The notes: generated by a model from the sequence alone, not told the origin. A DNA stretch of 64,000 nucleotides from Vermamoeba vermiformis (GCA_045837725.1 JBEWZL010000184.1:1-64000); one strand, 5' to 3'; counted from the first letter of the stretch, positions 1 through 44,975 are shown. Numbers and translations are program-made.

Positions 1-211
1 TCCCTCTTCGGCCGGCCAATGCTTTTAGATAAAAATTATACAAAAATTCAGGACCTTTGATTTCCGTTAATCGCCAGAAGAGACTGTAGTACAAAAAATG
101 GTACAATTTTGTTGGGCGATGTCCATTGACAGTGCGCCACACCCCTGCGTGGATCCAGATCAGCCCCGGATCCGATCCACTTCCCCAAGCTTATTTCTTT
201 GTTTTATCATT

Positions 212-600
212 AAAAAGGGATAAATCGCAATACAAGACTTGGTTGAGCAAGCCTAAGTATTCATAGGGAGGAATTTGGCCGGGCCCTAACCCATCCAAGT
301 GTCGAAGTCACGTTGAGGTGACTGACACGGCCAAAACCATGCGATTCATCAAGATAAAGGTCGCAGGCATCAAGATGACACCCCTCCATAAAGGAGACCG
401 TACAACAAAAGAGTGTCCGCTACGGCAAGTGACAAGTCACTTTCTAGCCCATCCAACTCAGTGCCAGTGAGAGTGCTGTTCCGAACCAGTGGTGTCACCG
501 AAGCAACACGACCTCCAGACCATACTCTGACCCACATCGTCGAGAATCAACGCGTAACTTTCTCGTTGTAGCGGCGCTAAGGTTTCACCCTTAGACGCCG
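212..600 (-). ncRNA. Candidate structured non-coding RNA, family unknown
   Basis: No ORF of 60 aa or more. At least six hairpins (572-600, 541-565, 492-509, 427-442, 299-328, 229-261). Two stems need G-U pairs that only form on the minus strand. One stem carries a C(UUCG)G tetraloop, and the element ends in TTTTT (212-216). Confidence 0.45.
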
Positions 601-1603
601 GATTGTTTAACATTGTTTATTGATAATTAATAGTGTCCAATAGTTTTAACAATCCTAAATATAATACACAGTGTTAGATAGGCGATGAAATTCACCTTGG
701 AACTGTAAAAACTTGAATTTTGCTGGCACGCATTCGCCGCAACTATGGTACGTAAATTATTACTTACCGTTGCTGTTTCCGTATTGAATTAGTCATTTAA
801 AATTACGTAGTGCATTGTTTTACCGCATCGATACCTGTTGTATTCAGATCGTGCGCGAAAAACTTGCCGCCTAAAAATATAGCCGTTAGAATTTGCACAT
901 TAATGATTTAAATTTAATAACTGCAATCTATAAAGGTAAGTGTAAGTTTAGAAGCATTGATTTGTAACAGTGCTCGTGCAGAAAATATTTAAAAATTAAA
1001 AAATTCGAATCTGAAATTTTTATACCTGTTTGCTTCTCTTCAGCTAGTATTTTATCGACAATGCATGGCTATATATAAGACAATTTTTTTCCGATTATCA
1101 AACCAAATATAACTTGCAGTTCGATAATTTCCCATGAATGTGGCCGCAGCATCTCCAGTGGACGCGGCCAAGGTGATTTGGTGTCACCCCAGCTTATTCT
1201 GGTAGATGATTTGGTCGTGCTTCATGGTACTGTGATTGCGGAGTGAATAATAAATCGGTTTTGCCAGCGAAAAGACTATTTTTTTGGCAGCGAATCGCCC
1301 GCAACTACAGGGCAGCAAGTGATAAGCTTGCTAAAGTTAATTGTATGCTATTTCATCAATATTATCAAAGATAAAAGACAGAGCGACGCGTTAAAGACCA
1401 GATCGAGTAATAATTTATTTATTTTTTTTACTCGAAGAAATTCAGCAAAAACCTCCCTATAGCTAGGTGTAAATAGCTTATAAATGCGCAAAAAAATGCC
1501 CAATTTAATTGAAATACCAATATCTTCGCCCGAAATTAATTTTTTTTCGTGCGCAGGGATCAAAGGGATATTGTACAGTGCACAGGGATCAAGTCAACAG
1601 AAC

Positions 1604-3553
1604 TTAATCGCTGACATAAACATCACCATCACTACAATAATTATTATAATCACTCTCGCTGTCTTCATACTGCACGCTATCACTATCATTGCTATCGTCA
1701 TCAAGTACCTCGCTCATGCTAGAACTGTCAGATCCACTCGGTTCCACGTCATATTCATGAGAGGTACTATTATTGCTGTCACTACTGTCACTTTTCAAGT
1801 CAGGAGCGCTAATGCTGCTGTCATCCATGGCAATATTTTGGGCACTTACTGAGTCCTCATCGGATCCAGATCTCATCGGCGACGAGTCATCAACACTACT
1901 GCCACTAATATCACTATCGCTATGACTACTGTCAACACTGTCGTCATATTGTTCGTATTTGACGCCCATTGAACTGTCACTGTGTTCGGAAATTTTATCA
2001 GCGCCATCCGGATCTTCATTGCCGTCGTACAACTGCCTCTCAGGAGCATCACTATCATAATAGGCATATGATCGAATTGGATAGTGGGTAGTATTATATC
2101 TGTCATGGCTAGTACTTGACGCATCATTCGTGTCAGATCCGGATCCAGATCCGACGTCACTATCTTCGTCACCGCTGTCATCAGACTCGTGCGTATAATC
2201 CATATTTAGACTGTCACTATCATCGTCATCACGTGACATGACATCAGCGTCGTATTCATCGAACAGTTCCTCGTCTTCTTCGTCAATGCTGTACGCCAAG
2301 ATCTGCGATCTGGCAGTGTCGGACAAGAAGGGCATAATCAACTCTAATAGTCTATTGCTCATTATTAAGGGCTGTTGACCATCGATTAAGAACCCTGGTC
2401 GTCGTCTGCTGCGTGGTTTGTTGCGCAAGTTCTGCTCCAATGTTGCGACAGATCCGTCTCTGTTTCTATGCGCGTAAAAACAGGCTGCATTGAAGGGACA
2501 ATAGCCCGTGCCGTACTTGAAGTATTTACATGGTATTTGCTTCAATCGATTCAAGTACCGCGCAGTGATTTTGTCCTTGATCTGCCCCGTCGCGTGTACT
2601 GGCGAGGGTACGACGAACAAGGACAATTGACGGCACATGGGACACGTGTGACTGACCGACTCCACGGCCTTGTCTGCGTAGTGTTGATCTGTGGCGCGCC
2701 AGTTGCGAATGCAGTCGAGACAGTACACGTGATCACAACTGCCTAAAAAGGAAATAATGTCAGATCCTCCAAATCTATAATCTCTTTAATCTCGTTAAAA
2801 TTGATTTAAGGTATCATGATGCGTTCAGTAATATGTATATAAGCATTATTGGTCTATTAGACTGTGAGAAGAAGGTAAGTGTGGATGTAGCTAACTTACT
2901 TAACAAACCGAAAAGTCGTTTCTGTGACACTACGCCATCAAAACATATCGAGCACTCTTTGTCCTTAGAGTCGCTTATTAACTGCTGCATAGTTTTGTCG
3001 AGTAATATATCTGCTGCTTCGACTTTTCCGTCACTGTTCTTGGATGTGGCATCTGGATTCGTTTCCTCATCATCAAATAGCAATTCGTGCGAATAAGGAC
3101 ATGCATTGCCTTTCATACAATTGCCGCTGAAGTAAAAGAAGCAAGGCTGCGGGTTCTTCTCGACTGGATTTGGATTCGAGGGACCAGATCCAGATTTGTT
3201 GTTTAATTCCTTTTTCTTAGTTTCATCGTGCAACCATGCGCACTGCGCTCCATTTTTGCAATTTCCTTGCAAGAAAAATTTGCAGAGGATGTTGTCTGGT
3301 GAAAGTCAAGATTAGTCAGTTGAAAACCGATCCACGCGAAAACAATTTGCTTAAAAACGCGAAATTAATTATATATGATTATACGTGGTATTTAAGAAGT
3401 AATAAAGCAATTTGAGTGCGTTCTCCAATTTGAAGAATTTTGAAAATTATTCGGATCCGAAGAAAATTTGGGTGCAGAAATCGAAATCTGAGAATAGCTA
3501 TGCATTTTACTGTACATACCTTTGTTATTAAAATTTCTTGTATTATTATTCAT
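1604..3553 (-). CDS. Makorin-like CCCH zinc finger / RING E3 ligase with acidic Ser/Asp-rich tail (spliced)
   Basis: Two CCCH fingers (CKFFLQGNCKNGAQCAWLH, CFFYFSGNCMKGNACPYSH). RING CSIC...FGLL / YCLDCIRNWR...CPMCR, then CKYFKYGTGYCPFNAACFYAH. First exon 3553-3520 ends at a GT donor. Confidence 0.85.
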
Positions 3554-3767
3554 AAACTATTAATTCAGAAGATCTCGTACTATTTCTACTTTTCTTTTCT
3601 TTTTAATCGCTGAACGGATGAACAAAGTAATATCCAACGTCCTATCGGCAAGTACAAGCAGGAACAACTTGTTGTTGTGTATCGATACACAATCTGATAA
3701 AAATAGGCCAATTAAAAAAGATCTGGTCAAGAAAAAGTTCTGAAATGGTGATTACTTTATTACGAGA

Positions 3768-6036
3768 TTAAAGATTAGTCTTAGGTTGGCAGTTGTTACC
3801 GCAAGGAGGATACGGCAAGATATCAGGAACGATGTTAACCTCAGTAGTAATCTTGAACTCATGGAGTACATTGACGGGATCCTTTGAGGGCACTTCGTAG
3901 ATCAATTCAACGAGGAAACCAGTCCAGCCAGAGAGAGGAGCATTTTGACTAAAATAATGGTTAGATTGGATTTAATCTAGATTGCCATGCTAAGAAATTT
4001 AGTGTGGATTCGAGAAACCGAAATGGATTTGGAACGAAAAATTATGAGGCAAAACAATTAGCTCGAGTACTTACGTAGCAACATAGACGCCATTGCCTTG
4101 ATCTTCCAATTGATGATACCACCACATGACTGGTTGAGCGCAGCCAGGGAATTGATTGATGCAGGTGATCAAACGGAAGTCTCGGCGCGTAGCGCTCAAG
4201 GTTCGTGCGTACCACATATAGACACTGATAATAAGGCCGTCAGTCTCAATACAATACAAGTAAAGCTTGGGAAATTAGTCGCTAAGACGTGTCAAAAAAG
4301 TCGCGTCAACATACCCCTTAGGCTTATCTTGGGTCTTCACGATAATTTGTGCATTAGTCGAGTTTGAGCGGATCAATTGCCACGAGACACGAGGTTGCGG
4401 CTTGTTACCGAGCTGCATATGAATGAAGCTTGAGATCGATAAGGCAACGTCAGTTTGAGAGCCCAAAAGTGCGTGCTCAGCATTGGGTACCATGCGCAAA
4501 TACTTGCTGCCTTGAAGTTTGTCCCAGAAGAAGCTAGCACCTATAATAATTGTTAGCCTTATTCAATCAATAAAATAGATTTCTATCGACGTACCGTCCG
4601 GCAAGAAGAACTCGTCACCAGTGGCGCAAATGACGTACTTGGCCTTGTTGACGTATCTATCGAGGTACTTGATGGGATCAATAATGTCAGCCATCAATTG
4701 GAATTGAGGCGAGTTCAAGTAGCTCATGACATTTTCTTCCAACTGCAGCACGAGAGTCAGTTCCGTACAACACTTTTATTACGAGCACTTACGTAATCAC
4801 CGAATGCAAAAGTCCATTCACCGAGTGCTTGCCACATCTTGTTAATGTTGGGAACTGTTGCAATCATCATTAATTACTGTTTGATAGTGCGTACTTGTGT
4901 CTTCACAACTGCGACAACATACCCATATCTAAGATCGGAATGACAATAGGAATGAAGACAGTGACACGCTTGTCAACGGCAGCGACAGTCCAAGTGGTCC
5001 AGCCACGCTTGGAGGCACCTGTCATATCGATAAGTACACGATCTTAATAAGCTCAATTAAGAAGACAAACGTACCAGCAATAGCGAAGCTCGTGATCTTG
5101 GGGATGTTCATGTTCTTGGTGAAATCTTGTACGGTGTCCCTAATTTGACACGTGTCATCAGCACCGAAGTGTCACAAAGTAGTCTCGATCATTACGTACA
5201 TTGCACGAACGCCAGCCTTGGTCATGGGCATACGAGCCAACCAATAAGGTGACTTGGTGTCGTTGATGAAGTGCGCCCAAGTGTAGGCAATCATCGCATC
5301 CTCTGAACGGTGCTTCTTCTTGGGATCAGCGCTGAAGATAATAGGCTGGTTGGGAATATCTTGCAAATCTATTAAATAGCATAGTGTCATTATTAAGTAC
5401 GATGTATCATTCGCATAGATATTTCTTACGCGCTGTCACGGCTTTGGTCGATCTGCACAAAATGTCAATAAAGCTGATCAAGCTCGTGGGTTGGGAATCG
5501 CTTGTATGACCGCCATCCATATAGATCAATGAGGTGTTGTACATCACCTATTTAATTAATAATTAAGCTTCGTTGAAACAGAAAGTTCCGATCTGATCTC
5601 AGATTTCAACTCAAACTTTGACTCGACATTAGTATTCAAGAAAATATGGTACTTACTTCATCGGGAATGCAGACCATCAACCAATGCTTCCAGACGGGTT
5701 GATTAGTGTCAGCAGAAGTGAGCCAGGTTTGAGAAGTCATGTGTATGGCCTTCAATGTTTAAATATAATTATGATTAGTATTGATAAATTAATCAGTAAT
5801 CATCTCATAACGAATTTTAATTTTAAATCGTTAAATTCTTGCCAAATAAAATATCCTTTTAGATTTGTGGAAACGAATCCGGTTCTTACATAAGCAGTAT
5901 AGCCAAATCCTCTGAAGTTTCCCTTGACTGAATAAGTATAGCTCGAGTCAGGCATATTGACATAATCATCCAACGGAGTAGTATTGACAGTTGCGATCAC
6001 CGACAACAAGGCGACAATAACCGCCAATTTATTCAT
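3768..6036 (-). CDS. PqaA / AprA (autocrine proliferation repressor)-like secreted alpha/beta-hydrolase-fold protein (multi-exon)
   Basis: Signal peptide followed by TPLDDYVNMPDSSY. Family motifs IPNQPIIF, RSEDAMIAYTW, RMPMTKAGVRAMD, GASKRGWTTW, ATGDEFFLPD and VPNAEH. Confidence 0.85.
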
Positions 6037-6183
6037 GACGGTCAGCATTATTGCTAATATGGTGATATATAATACAACGAGAAGGATAATGACAATTCAA
6101 CCAAAGGACGTAATTTTGATTCTCCTATTTTTGGCTGCAGATCACGTGTTTGCCTAAAAAATTCTTTATTACAGTATTAATAT

Positions 6184-30392: not shown

Positions 30393-33300
30393 ATGGCCGA
30401 ATTGGAGAGCACGGTCCTAAACGGGCTGACGTTTTCAATTTTCGAATCAATCGCTGCCCCGAAGAAGAAAGAGCTCACTGAATTGATCAAAAAATATGGC
30501 GGCGCAGTGTCTTATATGATCTCTAATAGCGTAAGCAAAATACACACACTTCACAATTTACGATCAGACTTTGGTAGTAGCTTTAGAATTCAAAAATGGT
30601 TAATAAATTTGTTTTCATTTATCAGGTCACTCATTTAGTAGTACGCGATGAGGATTTAAAGAAATCAGACAATCCAAAAATCAAGAAAGCTAAGGAAAAG
30701 AAGATCACGCTGATCACAGAAGTTGCCTTAACGAAATTGGTTGAAACAAAGAAAAAAGAAGCCTCTAGATCACAGCCATCTTCAGGACTCGCTACGCCAA
30801 CCAAAAGAACCTCGAAAACTCCCTCAAAAGAAGTAAGCGGATTCAGTTGCAACAAAGACCAACTTTAACGTATCTTTCAGGTTTCGAGTACTAATGGAAA
30901 AGAAACCCCAACTCGTACCCCTTCTTCACCAACCAAGGTTAAACCATCAGATTCTATCGTCAAAGCCAGCGAATTAAATATTTCAGTTGTCTCGCAGTCA
31001 AATCCACACAAAGGACCTCCCACAGTAACCCTATTATTGCCAGACCACGGTGCGTCATAATTTACCAATTTAGATCAATTTAGAAGCGAGTTTGAGCCAT
31101 CGATGCTTCTAGAGCCTTTCCATTGAAAGTCTAGAACTGACTTCCATTTTAGGAGCTATTACTGGTGACTTCCAAGTCGCTGTGTTTGGTCTCGGTTTTA
31201 CTCCCAATCCTAAGTTTAGGTATGACGTAATTACAGCTCGACACGAACTAATTTCTTTCAAACAGAGTAAAGTTCGGATCTGTCACGAGTGTGAGTTATG
31301 AATTCCACAGCGCGACATCTGTAATTTGTAAAATTCCCTCGACGCTTGTGCAAGCAGGAGAGGTTCTTGTCGCTGCATCTAACGACGGAGGACGTACTTA
31401 CGGTTTCCCTGCTCGCTTCAAATTCATTGGTAAGTTGGTCCCTCACAATGCTGTCAAAACTATCCAAACTAACATCGATCAGATGCTGTGTTCTCCACGA
31501 ATGTATCGAGTCCAGACGTACAATTGTCATTGCTGAGCGGTCAATTGCTCAATCTTCACCGTGCCATTCAAAACATTCAACGCATGGAAGTGGACATTAA
31601 GAACCAAATCCAAGCCGTGGCTGGTGTTGACATTGTGGCCCTTCAAAAACAATACGCTCTCGACAACGACATCGAAGAGGATTACAGCGGCGAAGATCAA
31701 GAGACTGAAGATGAGTATGAGGAAGAGCCCGATGAAATTCCAGCCGCCAAAGTCCAAACCAAGACCAACAAGAAAGGATTGCTCGACCGTGAAATTCGCT
31801 TGTTCATTGCCTCGCCCTTCAGAGACATGACCAGTGAACGAGATCAGTTGGTAAGGCGGGAGATTTCCTCATTTTTTGCCAGGTTGCTGACAGTTTCAAT
31901 AGGTCAAAATGGTCATTCCTAAGCTCCGCAAGATGTGCATGGAACGCGACATTGTGTTCTCCTACGTTGATTTACGCTGGGGTGTCACTGACCAACAGAA
32001 CGAATCGGCTGCCACGATGTTGATGTGCTTGCGCGAGATTGAGCGTTGTAACATGTTCATCTGCAGCTACGGTGAGCGCTATGGCTGGTCTATCTCGCCG
32101 GAGCACGACGGTGCTGCCAACGAGCTGTTGACGCGACACTTTGAAACAGCGGCCAAAGAGTTCCCTTGGGTTGACAAGTTCAAGGACAGAAGTGTCACCG
32201 AACTCGAGCTCAGAATGGTCTTGGAGAAGCGATACAACGGCCCCGAGAAGAGTGCTTGGTTCTACTTGCGTGATCCTTACTACATTGAAGAAGTGCCCGA
32301 CAAGGACAAGCACCTCTATTTGTCCGAGGGTCAAATCTCCGCCAAGAAGCTCGCCAAGTTGAAGCAATACATTCAAGAGTCCGAGCACCCCGTCAAGAAC
32401 TACAACAGACCTACGCAAATGATTGAATTCGTCTACGAAGACTTGAAGAACTGCATCGAACAGAAGTACCCGAAGGACACCACTTTGTCCGCTCTCGAAC
32501 GTGAAAGATTCCGTCACGAAATCTACAGCCGATCGTTGCTGCGCGTCTATTTGCCGCACGAAGACAGTTTGATGTCCGTTGACAAGTACATTGCTGGCTC
32601 TGCTCGTGCCCCGTTTGTGATCTCTGGTCCTTCTGGTATTGGTAAAAGTGCTTTACTTGCCAACTGGGTCACCAGACACCGCGAGCACTTCCCCGAAGAC
32701 ATCGTCATTTCACACTTTGTTGGTGCCTCCCCCAGCAGTGCCTTACACACCAACATGATGTACCGAATCATGGCCGAGTTGCACGAAATTTTGGACCTCG
32801 ATGAAGTCTTGCCGGACCCTGAGACTCAAGGCCAAATGATCGTTCGAGAGTTCTTCAAGTGGCTCGAGAACACGATGATCGATAAGAACCCTAACAAGCG
32901 TCGCTTGATCATTGTTCTTGACGGCCTCAACAAGTTGGACGACCGAGAAAATGCTCGCGAACTGATCTGGTTCCCTCACAGCTTCCCCAAGCGCGTAAGT
33001 ACCTAGACAGGTGTGAAATTTCAAGGCTAACGCGTGACATGCAGGTCCGTGTTGTTGTTACCACCACTCCTGGTGCTTCGTTGGACGTGTTGAGAAAGCG
33101 CAAGTGTGAAGTGTTGGACATTCCCTCGTTAACTGAAGGTGACAGAAAGAGCTTCTTGCGCTTGTTCCTCAACTTGAACTCGAAGAAACTCACTGAAAAC
33201 CAAGAACTCAAGATTGCTACTGCCCCTCAATGTGCTCACCCGCGATTCTTGCAAACCCTTCTCGAGGATATTTGCGTCTTTGGTGCTCACGAAGAGTTAG

Positions 33301-35575
33301 AAAAACGAATCGGTCACGACTTGCGTGCCAAGAACGCGGCGGAATTGTACGAGATTGTGTTGGACCGCATGGAAGTCGATTTTGATCTGCGCAACAAGGG
33401 CGTGGTCAATCTCTTCTTGTCGTACATTGCTTGCTCGCGACGAGGTCTCTATCTCGAACAAGAGCTCAAGCCTTTGTTGGCGCAGAAGAAGATCAACGAG
33501 GAAGACTGGTCCGATTTCTTCGTCACTGCCGAGGAACAATTGCTGTCCAATAGTAAGTCACAGTAGCAGTTAAGAATCATTTTCTGACCTTGATTTTTCT
33601 AGCCGGTGGCTTGCTGTCATTCGTCAACGAAGATATTCAAAAGGCCGTTGAGCGCAAGTACCTTTCAGACAAAGAAACAACCCGTCAATTGCACGAAGAA
33701 CTCGCCAACTTCTTCCTCAAGATTGAAGACCTCAGCACCCGCAAGATTGAAGAGTTGCCTTGGCAATTGGAGAAGGCCTCCATGTGGGACATGTTGAAGA
33801 CTACCTTGTCTAACTTGGCTATCTTCGACAAACTCTGGATCCCGGCTAACAAGTTCGATTTGCTGCGCTACTGGAGATCGATCGAGAAGAACTCGCAATT
33901 TGAAGCTTACCAATGCTACAAAACTGTCATTGACTTGTCACAATTCCCGCCAGGCATGATCGTTGGTGACTTGATGTACGAGCTCGGTCAATGCTTGCTT
34001 GAAATGGCCAAGTACAACGGTGCCGAAGAGGTCTATTACAAGGCCATTGAATACTTCCAAAAGGCCTCGCAAAGACTCAACGTCGCCAAGGTGTACGTTG
34101 ACTTGGCCACACTCTACAACACAAGAGTAAGTTGTTATTATATGCAGCTTTCAATGCTCACTTTTCACAGTCAAACGAGAGCGAGAAATCCGAAAAGATG
34201 TTGTTGCAAGCCCAAGAAGTCTACGAAAAAGAGAAGGGCAGCGACGCCGCCGAAGTTGGTCTCGTGTTGAACAAATTGGGTGTCGTCTACACCAACACCA
34301 ATCAACCTAAGCGTGCCTTGGAAGTCTTGGCACGCGCTCTTCGTATCTGCGAGAGCACTCTTGGCGTCGATCACTTGCAGACTGGTGAAGTCTACTACAG
34401 CTTGGGCTGCGCTCACTTGTCACTTCGAGACCTGCCCGTAAGTCCAGCGAAGCATCTTTTCGATACGCTGCTAACCTGCCTCGAATTAGGAAGCTGAAAA
34501 GTGTCTCTTGCGCGCGTTGAAGATCACAGAAGAACAACTCGGTGACGGTGATCCAGACGTGTCCAACATTCTCAACAGAATCGGCACGTTGTACATTGAA
34601 ATGGATCAGTTCAACGACGCTGAAGCTGCGTTCAAGCGCGCCTTGTTGATCAGAGAAAAGAAGTTGGGTGAAGACCACAGCCGTGTCGCACAGACCCTCA
34701 AGCACATGATTTCACTCTACGAAATGCAAGAGAACTACGATGACGCCATTCAAGTCGGTCGCAGAGCTCTTGAAATCTCCAAGAAAATCTTCGGCGAGGG
34801 ATGCTTGCAAGTGGCTAACATCTACATGCGTCTTGGTGTCATCTTCATGGTCGCTGAACGTCCTGACGAGGCACGCGATGTATTGCGCAGTGCATTGGCC
34901 CTCAAGGAGAGATTGAGCGGCAAGGGCAGCAAACAAGCCGAAGAAGTGCAACACATCTTGGATGTACGTGCTAACGTGTCAAAAATGTCACTTGGTAGCA
35001 TCTTACTAATTAACTTCACCATAATAGGAAATTGACAAGCCCAAGAACGTGCCACCTCCTCCACCTCCACCTGGTGCTCCTCGTCCCCCTGTCAAACGTA
35101 AGTTGACGATATTTTTTGCAAACCGCGCTGATCACTGACCTGTCACTCAGCACCCATGCCTGTCATCCAAGAGAAGCCCAAGCCCCAAGTCGTGGTGGAC
35201 ATTCCATTGGGCCCAGGTGGCGTGCCTCCCCCACCTCCCCCTCCACCTCCTGCAGGCCGCAAGCCCACGGAGGCCAAGGTCCAAGAACAAGTCTTCAACG
35301 CCGGCTACCTCGAGGACTTGCAGAACTACAACAGATCTGCCCTCAAACGCGCGCAAGTCGTGGACAAGTCTGACGGCAAACAAGCAGCCATTACTATGTT
35401 GGCGCAAAAGAAGGCCAAATTGAACTTGAAGAAGGCGACCTGGACCACTGAGAACGATGACGACGTCGATGTGTACGTAGAACCTGGCTAATACTGTTCG
35501 TTATGATTGAGTTTAATTTATAATATTTTCAGTCCTAAGACGAGAAAGTTGGAGATGTTGAAGAAGAAAAAATAA
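30393..35575 (+). CDS. NPHP3/TEP1-like STAND protein: BRCT - IPT/TIG - DUF4062 - NACHT-like NTPase - TPR - polyPro/WH2-like tail (multi-exon)
   Basis: BRCT LNGLTF...IKKYGGAV...VTHLVV. IPT-like PDHG...VAVFGLGF...FGSV...VICKIP. DUF4062 IRLFIASPFRDMTSERD...VDLRWGV. Walker A GPSGIGKSALL and Walker B IIVLDGL. Kinesin-light-chain-type TPRs (RALLIREKKLGEDH). Confidence 0.85.
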
Positions 35576-42891: not shown

Positions 42892-44975
42892 ATGACAGAT
42901 TCAGCATCGGTTCTTAAAGAACTGAGAAAACTTCCCGAGAATAAAGTGTGCATGGATTGCACTGACAAGGTAATGGTCATAATATTAGTATAGGGGATGA
43001 CTAAATACTAATATCACGCGACTTTTCTTTCAGATGCCGTCGTTCGTTTGTCTTGAACTCGGAACTTTTGTTTGCGCAAGCTGCGCAGGCATTCAGTACG
43101 TATTAATTAAAGCCTAATTTACTTATTAGAGAATTATTACTAATTTTCCAAATAATATTTGGTCAGGCTGTTTTTCTAATTTTCGATTTTAATATTAATT
43201 TTACAGCCGAGAATTGGGACACCATATTAAATCTGTGACTTTGTCAATATTCACTCCTGAGGAAGTCGAGTTGGTTTCAGCAGGTGGCAATCAGGTAATT
43301 TCATCAAGAATTTACAAAATTCAAGATCCATTTAAAAAATTAAAATTCGTTCGCAGAGCTCAACACTACTGCGTATGAACACACGGCATCATTTAACGGC
43401 CGTTCAATTTTTTTCGTAATTTTTAAGGAAAATTAACTTGCGATCTATGTGGATTTTCTGTGTCAACAGCAGTACACTGATATCATTATAAACTAGAATG
43501 CAAAGAAAATTTGGCTCGGTAAATGGACTCCCTCCGTATTCCCGCAGCCAGGTCCCACAGACAAAGCCAATATCCGCGAGTTTATCAAGTTAAAGTACAT
43601 TGACAAGTTGTGGTACGCCATGCCGAGCAGCCCTCTTGCTGCACCTGAGAGCAAACCTGCTACAGTTAATACCGAGATCAGTCAAGCTGCTTCGGCCAAC
43701 ACTACGTCGTTGGCTGTGGACCCCGTAGAACAATACAAGTCCCCTTTTGAGACACCGAAAGTTAACCCTGTTGAAAGCTCAGTGAGCTGGCGAGCCAATT
43801 TTGATCAATTTGACGCAGCTGTGAACAAATTGAACAAGAGTTTGGATATTTTAGAAATTCAAGAACAGAGTGCCAAGACACCGAACAAGCCAGCTGAAAA
43901 TCAGTATCAACACCAGAGCGGAGATTTAATTACATTTGATCTCTTGACTGGTGCAGTGCCGCCACCCAAGCCACAAGAACAACCGCAGCAAACACAGTAC
44001 ATTGTGCGCGAGAGCTCACCGCCGAAGTTGAACCAAAGCCAAGGTGACTCAAATCAAGTTCAGTCCCCGCAAACATCGCAATATGTCGTTAAAGAACAAC
44101 CACCTCAATACATCCAACAGCCTCAATCACCGCAACCTTCACCGTCAAATCAACGTGTCGCGAGCCCGCCTTCGCCGTCAACAACTTACCAACAGATGAC
44201 GCATCAATCACCGCCAATGATGCACGGTGCTCCCATGCCACAAATGGTCTCAAATTATCCTTATGGCACGCAGTTCATGGGTCCTCAGATGGTACCGCCA
44301 ATGATGCCACCAATGGGAGCGATGCCCATGCCTGTCTATCTCAATCAATATGGTCAACCAATGCCCATGCCTCCAATGGGTAGTCCGCAGCCTATGATGA
44401 TGCCAATGCCTATTGGCGCCAATGGCATGCCGATGCCCATGGGTCCTAATGGCGTGCCTATCGTCGTTGCTCCAGGCAATCCTAAAGCTACCCAAGGCGG
44501 AATGCCTCAACCAATCATTGTGAACCAATACGGACAGCCAGTGACACTTCCACCTGGCGTGCAACCGATCCCGATTATGTTGCCGCCCGGTGCTCAACCT
44601 CCTGGCTCGTGGCTGAGCAGACCTAACCTCCCCGCACACCAAGCCAAGCCTAACACGAGTGCTCAATCCACTCAGCACTTGTCAGACTATGAACTCGCGA
44701 AGAAGTTGCAAGAAGAAGAGAACAGACAGGCTAACAGCGGTGCGAGCAACAACAAGAAGCCTGTCGTGTCACAGCCCTCAAAGCCTGCATTCAAACCAAT
44801 GAGTGACGAGGAGTACGCACGTCGATTGCAAGAGGAAGAGAACAGCAAGGGCGGAGGTGGCAATAGTGGCTACAAGACCACACCTAATGTCATGAACCCT
44901 GGTCGCGGTGCTTACTTCAAGAGCGACGAGGAACTGGCTAGACAATTGGCTCAAGAAGAGGAAGAAGACGATTAA
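42892..44975 (+). CDS. ArfGAP (AGFG-like) with Pro/Met/Gln-rich region and three UIM-like motifs (multi-exon)
   Basis: LRKLPENKVCMDC...GTFVCASCAGIHRELGH.IKSV...GGN..AKKIW...IREFIKLKYIDKLW. UIM-like SDYELAKKLQEEE, SDEEYARRLQEEE and SDEELARQLAQEE. Confidence 0.88.

Follow-up and report, generated by a model that had tools for sequence, protein, structure and literature searches.

What does the minus strand of positions 212 to 600 encode in a 64,000-nt stretch of Vermamoeba vermiformis DNA (GCA_045837725.1 JBEWZL010000184.1:1-64000), here called the window, meaning the whole stretch that was analysed? An earlier note on this segment described a highly structured RNA-like element and proposed either a Pol III-type noncoding RNA or the structured end of a mobile element extending off the left edge. 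Our analysis favors, with a probability of roughly one half, a different reading, in which the segment forms the structured core of a spliced noncoding Pol II transcript that is restricted to this lineage and is the product of a lncRNA gene. The window is eukaryotic, with spliceosomal introns and with genes for F-box/ankyrin, NACHT-TPR, and Myb proteins, among others.

The stability of the fold was assessed against shuffled and natural sequence. The description as highly structured was borne out, as the minimum free energy (MFE) of the minus strand of 212-600 was -143.8 kcal/mol, compared to -121.6 +/- 5.8 for shuffles (z -3.81), and none of 100 dinucleotide shuffles was as stable. The plus strand had an MFE of -112.9 (z -2.54; 2 of 100 shuffles as stable). 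As a control, 50 natural window-strands of matching length, taken from both strands at 25 positions, gave shuffle z-scores with a mean of -0.11, a standard deviation of 1.08, and a minimum of -2.47. Upon regression of MFE on GC content in 389-nt windows (425 positions on 2 strands), none of the 850 window-strands reached the residual of the element's minus strand (residual z -3.58), and the plus strand of the element was ordinary after this correction (residual z -0.28). The asymmetry between the strands is due to G-U pairs, which account for 20 of 135 pairs in the MFE structure of the minus strand versus 1 of 107 on the plus strand, and the earlier assignment to the minus strand was right. 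The next three outliers of the regression had shuffle z-scores of only -2.40, -2.39, and -1.38; since they drop under shuffling, their stability derives mostly from G+U-rich composition. The segment 34951-35339, which folds with a z of -2.40, is antisense to a gene with an NLR-like architecture (DUF4062, a P-loop NTPase domain that is NACHT/NPHP3_N-like, and TPR_12) found in several ORF pieces at 31909-35035 (+). Exceptional folding was limited to 212-600, with 1-211 being unstructured (z +0.08). Two 150-nt windows stood out as the strongest, 201-350 (z -4.31 on the minus strand) and 551-700 (z -3.53); 401-550 taken alone folded unremarkably. No other part of the element folds as well as domain B (Table 1), which the first of these windows covers. 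We conclude that 212-600 is a real, strand-specific, and statistically exceptional RNA fold.

Base-by-base reading confirmed the position of the 5' hairpin CGGCGTCTAAGG-GTGAAA-CCTTAGCGCCG (H1) at 600-572 of the minus strand. Also recovered on this strand where the earlier note had them were the CGAGAA/TTCTCG stem (565-560/546-541), the UUCG hairpin GTGTTGC-TTCG-GTGACAC with its two G-U pairs (509-492), the stem TTTGGCCG/CGGCCAAA (335-328/281-274), the hairpin AGGCTTG-CTCAAC-CAAGTCT with one G-U pair (254-235), and the T5 run (216-212). For AAGTGAC/GTCACTT, the position (442-427) stood and the pairing did not; because a 2-nt loop is impossible, the real stem is one of 6 bp with a CUUG loop. Ensemble pair probabilities were approximately 0.8 to 1.0 for four of the six stems (H1, 442-427, 335/274, and 254-235), and the 565/541 stem and the UUCG hairpin were out-competed (probability 0.02 to 0.05) when 212-600 was folded alone. 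The UUCG hairpin forms in the MFE structure of 96-600 (z -2.94) and is absent from those of 212-600 and 1-654. H1 and domain B were essentially unchanged across the folds of these three segments, with the outermost pair of H1 (600/572) open in the MFE structure of 96-600 and all 11 pairs retained in the centroid. The centre of the element refolded among the three, with alternative pairings in about 540-360. The coordinates of all features are given in Table 1.

Table 1. Features of the structured element, of the spliced transcript around it, and of the neighboring genes (positions in the window)
Feature	Position	Strand	Basis or remark
Structured ORF-less RNA domain	212..600	-	Fold statistics, G-U asymmetry
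H1, 11 bp with a one-base bulge, GUGAAA loop	572..600	-	Pair probabilities 0.89-1.0
Direct repeat copy 1, UUGGAUGGGCUAG	444..456	-	Family D6
Hairpin AAGUGA-CUUG-UCACUU	427..442	-	Pair probabilities 0.78-1.0
Domain B, ~130-nt multi-branch, closing helix 350-341/229-219	219..350	-	Recurrent fold; inverted repeat I9
Helix UUUGGCCG/CGGCCAAA	274..335	-	7 of 8 pairs in MFE, probabilities 0.83-0.93
Twin hairpin 1, AGUCAC-CUCAAC-GUGACU	306..323	-	Nested in helix 335-328/281-274
Direct repeat copy 2, UUGGAUGGGUUAG	286..298	-	Family D6
Twin hairpin 2, AGGCUUG-CUCAAC-CAAGUCU	235..254	-	Pair probabilities 0.97-1.0
T5 run, 3' edge of structured part	212..216	-	Internal T4 runs precede
Exon 1, part seen	1026..1089	-	X5 record 2 ends at 1089
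Intron 1, 155 nt, GU...AG	871..1025	-	Joint in X5 record 2
Exon 2, 103 nt	768..870	-	X5 record 2
Intron 2, 113 nt, GUAAGU...UUUAG	655..767	-	Loose end of each X5 record matches the exon of the other
Exon 3, 654 to at least 400	400..654	-	X5 record 1
Makorin-like CCCH/RING gene	exons 3272-2814, 2728-1604; stop 1604	-	Immediately upstream of the present locus
Multi-exon PhoPQ_related (PF10142) gene	about 6096-3786	-	Beyond the makorin-like gene

Within domain B, the helix UUUGGCCG/CGGCCAAA encloses the first of two twin hairpins together with a GGGU-UAGG-GCCC hairpin. The twins, which are 70 nt apart, differ in their stems but have an identical hexaloop, CUCAAC. The word CTCAAC occurs 35 times on the two strands of the window and is closed by a stem of at least 4 bp in only 2 cases, both in the element; other loci, 162,221 nt in all, contained 89 such words, of which 1 was closed by a stem of at least 5 bp. 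When hexaloop hairpins with stems of at least 6 bp were counted, the element held 7 (shuffle mean, 1.76), and of 5,000 dinucleotide shuffles of the element, only 1 contained a pair sharing one loop. Same-loop hexaloop twins were present in 5 of 1,274 natural 389-nt windows, 3 of which represent the element and 2 a single other place, the only other one in the window. This second place (hexaloop TTGTTC; about 43,700-44,100, minus strand) is antisense to a 455-aa ORF at 43608-44975 (+) that has no Pfam family, and nearby, 44401-44789 (-) had a low GC-corrected MFE and a shuffle z of only -1.38. The best internal direct repeat of the element is one of 13 nt (UUGGAUGGGYUAG; 456-444 and 298-286) and is marginal, 5 of 100 shuffles matching its score; as there was nothing beyond this repeat, internal duplication was rejected. 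The twin stems have no extended similarity, so that pairing has been kept with different letters, and since no extended internal duplication was found, a recent copying event does not account for the twin loops. The twin CUCAAC loops come as close to covariation as one sequence allows. No described hairpin motif matched the CUCAAC loop in the titles and abstract openings listed by a literature search.

The surroundings of the element differ in composition. The earlier term "GC-richer island" holds for the enrichment but not for the extent, as a GC content of 0.50 spans 100-600 and not only 212-600, versus 0.22 to 0.41 in 601-1089. The island thus continues about 110 nt beyond the T5 run, as far as a T6 run near position 100 (CCAUUUUUUGUAC; 96-127, minus strand). 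Positions 107-127 (21 nt) show 76% complementarity to 390-410 (inverted repeat I2), and the RNA may therefore extend about 110 nt past the T5.

Evidence on the transcript comes from two contigs of one environmental biofilm run (X5; depth 2.7), the library source of which is given as TRANSCRIPTOMIC and which is yet flagged "RNA? (probably DNA)"; a processed DNA copy would look alike. With 100% identity, these contigs join 1089-1026, 870-768, and 654-400 of the minus strand across two GT-AG introns. Record 1 spans 400-655 uninterrupted, and its loose end matches exon 2 (769-777). Record 2 joins 1089-1025 to 869-767, and its own loose end matches exon 3 (643-653). The joint 869/1025 skips 155 nt and reads CT..AC (cut +1), with 65 letters on the shorter side and 0 other letters. 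Exon 3 probably runs on toward ~100-190. The sequence is AT-rich (GC 0.22 to 0.41) throughout exons 1 and 2 and in the initial 54 nt of exon 3. Position 600, proposed earlier as the 5' end of an RNA, sits 54 nt within exon 3; being inside an exon of a spliced transcript, it points to a transcript of the Pol II type. Two RNA runs with the same species label (X21 and X23) yielded 0 and 1 poor reads, and the presence of the organism in them is not established. Identical pieces of the stretch occur in metagenome runs from biofilm, wastewater, freshwater, and groundwater. These habitats, taken with the nearest named relative of the makorin protein described below, hint weakly at a free-living amoeboid protist. 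Runs carrying three other organism labels (X11 to X13 and X19) contained 0.03 to 0.19 of the sampled words of 150-700, with X11 to X13 sharing 0.17 to 0.19; these could stem from relatives with a conserved part or from carry-over of this organism. Upstream of the first exon seen, by about 170 to 200 nt, TTCGCTGSCAAAA occurs twice in tandem on the minus strand (1259-1271 and 1282-1294, within 1259-1312), and a related motif of ~24 nt, TAGTTGCGG..CGA.T, recurs in intron 2 (721-748, minus strand). Neither motif was enriched beyond chance elsewhere in the window; this could be a local promoter or enhancer element.

The coding capacity of the region was negligible by each measure applied. The element had been called ORF-less, and rightly so, the longest ORF within 1-700 being one of 55 aa, for which no relative was found. 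The best-frame codon log-odds was -0.014, compared to 0.312 +/- 0.153 (minimum 0.088) for 19 coding pieces, and falls inside the range of noncoding controls (maximum 0.112). Six-frame translations of 1-701 gave no Pfam match at an E value of <=1 apart from one at 0.24. Short upstream ORFs are present in exons 1 and 2, and an ATG-initiated ORF of 51 aa (613-458) starts 11 nt ahead of the structured block. Its frame is poor in stops (4 in 204 codons, 3 TGA and 1 TAA, versus 11 per other frame). Reassignment of TGA found no support, since in terms of ORF lengths in the window, TGA read as sense gained no more than TAA read as sense. The read-through frame from ATG 613 (P0006) had no Pfam match and no true relative among 1.84 billion representatives, and its 51-aa part likewise had no relative. 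The sole database match of the read-through frame, P0007, was rejected as a repeat-inflated chance alignment (spurious E 1e-7 via 17 repeated stretches); P0007 is a 1202-aa database "protein" read from tandem copies of a ~62-aa unit, resembling satellite DNA. The segment 212-600 is without coding capacity, and neither the coding statistics nor the protein similarity of a protein-coding exon or pseudogene was found. On two low-depth contigs, the locus thus combines canonical introns with the lack of any ORF longer than 55 aa, as in spliced lncRNAs.

We then used the makorin-like neighbor as an anchor for comparison with relatives. Relatives of the makorin protein were found at 91, 67, and 63% identity, the nearest with a name being a transcript from a set with the label Amoeba proteus, which is 50% identical across 29% of the query. 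A metagenome scan with an alignment of the makorin relatives yielded 20 loci, none of which showed similarity to 1603-1 in blastn and nhmmer searches at an E value of <=1 and none of which contained the twin CUCAAC hairpins. Only one of the 20 (L001, the relative at 63%) carries sequence downstream of makorin. Its upstream 3.1 kb are collinear with 3000-6037 of the window, with 84 to 96% amino acid identity in most exons of the PhoPQ_related gene. Collinearity (L001 1-4151) ends directly past the makorin stop codon, at the expected place of the element; the 4.2 kb downstream hold a convergent multi-exon gene that starts about 150 nt after the makorin stop and has no match anywhere in the window. 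The 1.6 kb from makorin to the edge of the window may therefore have been either added in this lineage or lost in that of L001. An exact 29-mer of H1 gave 0 matches in genome_contigs and viral_contigs, and a scan of viral_contigs with the makorin protein revealed no homologous locus. As far as these comparisons reach, the gene appears to be narrowly lineage restricted, and the element may be young.

The locus might instead have no function at all, being either a young, weakly transcribed intergenic stretch or the relic of a decayed gene, with its fold and twin loops accidental. The conservation that went undetected in the searches made, the low read depth, and the stop-poor frame, which could be a decayed ORF, are consistent with this, but the fold is extreme compared to both shuffles and natural sequence, identical twin loops arose in only 1 of 5,000 shuffles, and the six-frame translations match no protein family. 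We therefore regard absence of function as unlikely, and as the least improbable of the alternatives to a structured lncRNA.

The transcript is spliced like an mRNA, and the element might accordingly be a regulatory untranslated region (UTR), either a long structured 5' leader of a gene with its coding exons to the left of the window, the 3' UTR of the 51-aa ORF, or a spliced 3' UTR of makorin. The window stops at base 1, and downstream coding exons could lie to the left, but no GTAAGT-like donor was seen in 1-211 of the minus strand (read by eye, not a scan), and an AAUAAG with an A-rich stretch follows the T5. The ATG of the 51-aa ORF and the few stops in its frame would also suit a UTR; ahead of ATG 613, however, are several other ATGs that open short ORFs, and the 51-aa ORF has no relative. 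As for makorin, its 3' UTR would contain two introns more than 500 nt past the stop codon. Introns in a 3' UTR far beyond the stop codon make an mRNA a target of nonsense-mediated decay. Moreover, an AATAAA lies 181 to 185 nt past the makorin stop, and relatives have uninterrupted makorin ORFs of 526 to 528 aa on contigs of 1,741 to 1,823 nt, so that, if these contigs represent mRNAs, the two UTRs together could not exceed ~240 nt. Because of this early AATAAA and the short makorin contigs, the spliced transcript is probably a gene of its own and not a makorin 3' UTR. A UTR of any of the three kinds ranks second among the readings that we find unlikely.

Alternatively, a stable RNA of ~390 to 500 nt might be cut from exon 3 of the spliced host transcript as the subunit of an RNP of an undescribed family, for example, the telomerase RNA of this lineage. 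The GC-rich structured block begins abruptly 54 nt into exon 3, where GC content rises from 0.22 (601-654) to 0.50 (100-600), and its 5' and 3' edges are marked by a terminal hairpin and a U-run, respectively. A precedent exists in Ustilago maydis, the telomerase RNA of which derives by processing from the 3' part of a precursor that is capped, spliced, and polyadenylated, according to an excerpt of PMC9564094. By that excerpt, the present locus resembles the Ustilago RNA in having a structured RNA in the 3' portion of a spliced precursor, and the Ustilago case indicates that this arrangement can yield an RNP RNA; it differs in that the exons seen here hold no upstream protein-coding ORF and in that the transcribed strand lacks a template-like stretch for the telomere repeats tried. 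The latter was assessed for 1.5 repeats of 11 known telomere repeat types, and the minus strand contained no word complementary to any of them, although the repeat of the host may be of another type. Telomere-like words on the minus strand of the element were G-strand-like (GGGTTAGGG at 292 and CTTAGGCTT at 257), and template-like words were confined to the plus strand (CCCTAACCC at 283-291 and AAGCCTAAG at 249-257). CCCTAACCC is directly 3' of the helix arm 274-281 on the plus strand, and AAGCCTAAG is 30 nt away. Both plus-strand words occur in the window at chance frequency (2 versus 2.9 expected and 3 versus 2.9 expected). A role of CCCTAACCC as a telomerase template was rejected on account of its strand, its chance frequency, and the ordinary fold of the plus strand after GC correction.

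Searches with Rfam covariance models bear on the same question. The earlier note found no match by eye to tRNA, SRP, RNase P/MRP, U3, or spliceosomal snRNA motifs, and this was borne out, with 0 matches in the whole window at the gathering thresholds of Rfam 15. Even at an E value of <=10, 1-1200 gave only 4 chance matches (14.5 to 17.5 bits versus thresholds of 36 to 100), none of them to RNase P/MRP, SRP, 7SK, U3, snRNA, or telomerase RNA. An excised RNP subunit comes third among the unlikely readings, and the fuller version, in which the 390- to 500-nt block is released as the core of an undescribed RNP made by an mRNA-like route, its twin hairpins binding a dimeric protein and the RNA conceivably being that of telomerase or an equivalent, is a longer shot still.

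An independent small RNA gene running from 600 to the T5 at 212, transcribed by Pol III as proposed earlier or from an snRNA-type promoter, did not withstand the transcript data. The contig crosses 600 uninterrupted and is spliced to upstream exons, and T4 runs at 410-407 and 336-333 precede the T5, although a four-T criterion may not be that of the host; the position of 600 inside a spliced exon and the two internal T4 runs are evidence against such a gene. An AT-rich TATA-like stretch is present at 633-615, about 15 to 33 nt upstream of 600, but the surrounding sequence is AT-rich in general. In plants and ciliates, telomerase RNA genes belong to Pol III type 3, according to an excerpt of PMC12133305. 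The element falls within the size range (about 300 to 450 nt) of these and the other type-3 RNAs (U6, 7SK, and RNase MRP) and resembles them in folding compactly, in having a U-run at the 3' edge, and in being preceded by AT-rich sequence; unlike them, it has its putative start inside a spliced exon, internal T4 runs, and no Rfam match to any Pol III RNA family, and a tRNA scan detected no tRNA-like element. We hold this origin to be very improbable. No better are the prospects of a repeat, whether SINE-like or the end of a mobile element off the left edge, for which the A-rich stretch after the element and its absence, as of an insertion, from the syntenic place in L001 could be cited, but which has no second copy of 1-750 within the 64-kb window, no tRNA-, 7SL-, or 5S-like head, an unstructured 1-211, and no Pfam match in six frames.

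We therefore return to the structured, spliced lncRNA as the preferred reading. Its gene would lie just downstream of the makorin-like gene and in the same direction, and its fold would serve as a scaffold that binds protein. In domain B, the twin CUCAAC hairpins might then form a bivalent site for two copies of one RNA-binding protein or for a dimer, with H1 serving as a terminal clamp and the central part (about 540-360) as an adaptable centre.

Spliced, polyadenylated, structured lncRNAs are known in protists and fungi, an example being dutA of Dictyostelium. The present locus is like these lncRNAs in having a Pol II-type transcript with introns, no notable ORF, and a stable fold; the likeness is one of kind, and no sequence relation is expected. 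RNAs with repeated identical hairpin loops serve as protein-binding platforms. Similar to such RNAs, the element presents two identical hexaloops on nonidentical stems in one domain, and in contrast to them, its CUCAAC loop matches no motif described in the titles and abstract openings cited above. Overall, the element is most like the structured spliced lncRNAs of many eukaryotes and belongs to no curated RNA family.

The case illustrates a trap in reading sequence alone, in that a compact fold followed by a U-run resembles a Pol III gene and here lies inside a spliced transcript. The element is a candidate rather than a discovery, and its recognition as a new family would take the finding of either compensatory changes in orthologues or an RNP form released by processing. 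Hardly any work, to our knowledge, has been devoted to structured noncoding RNAs in free-living protists. Provided that the fold is conserved and that protein binds to the twin-loop domain, the element would constitute a tractable new RNA-protein module in a group of organisms with few known regulatory RNAs.
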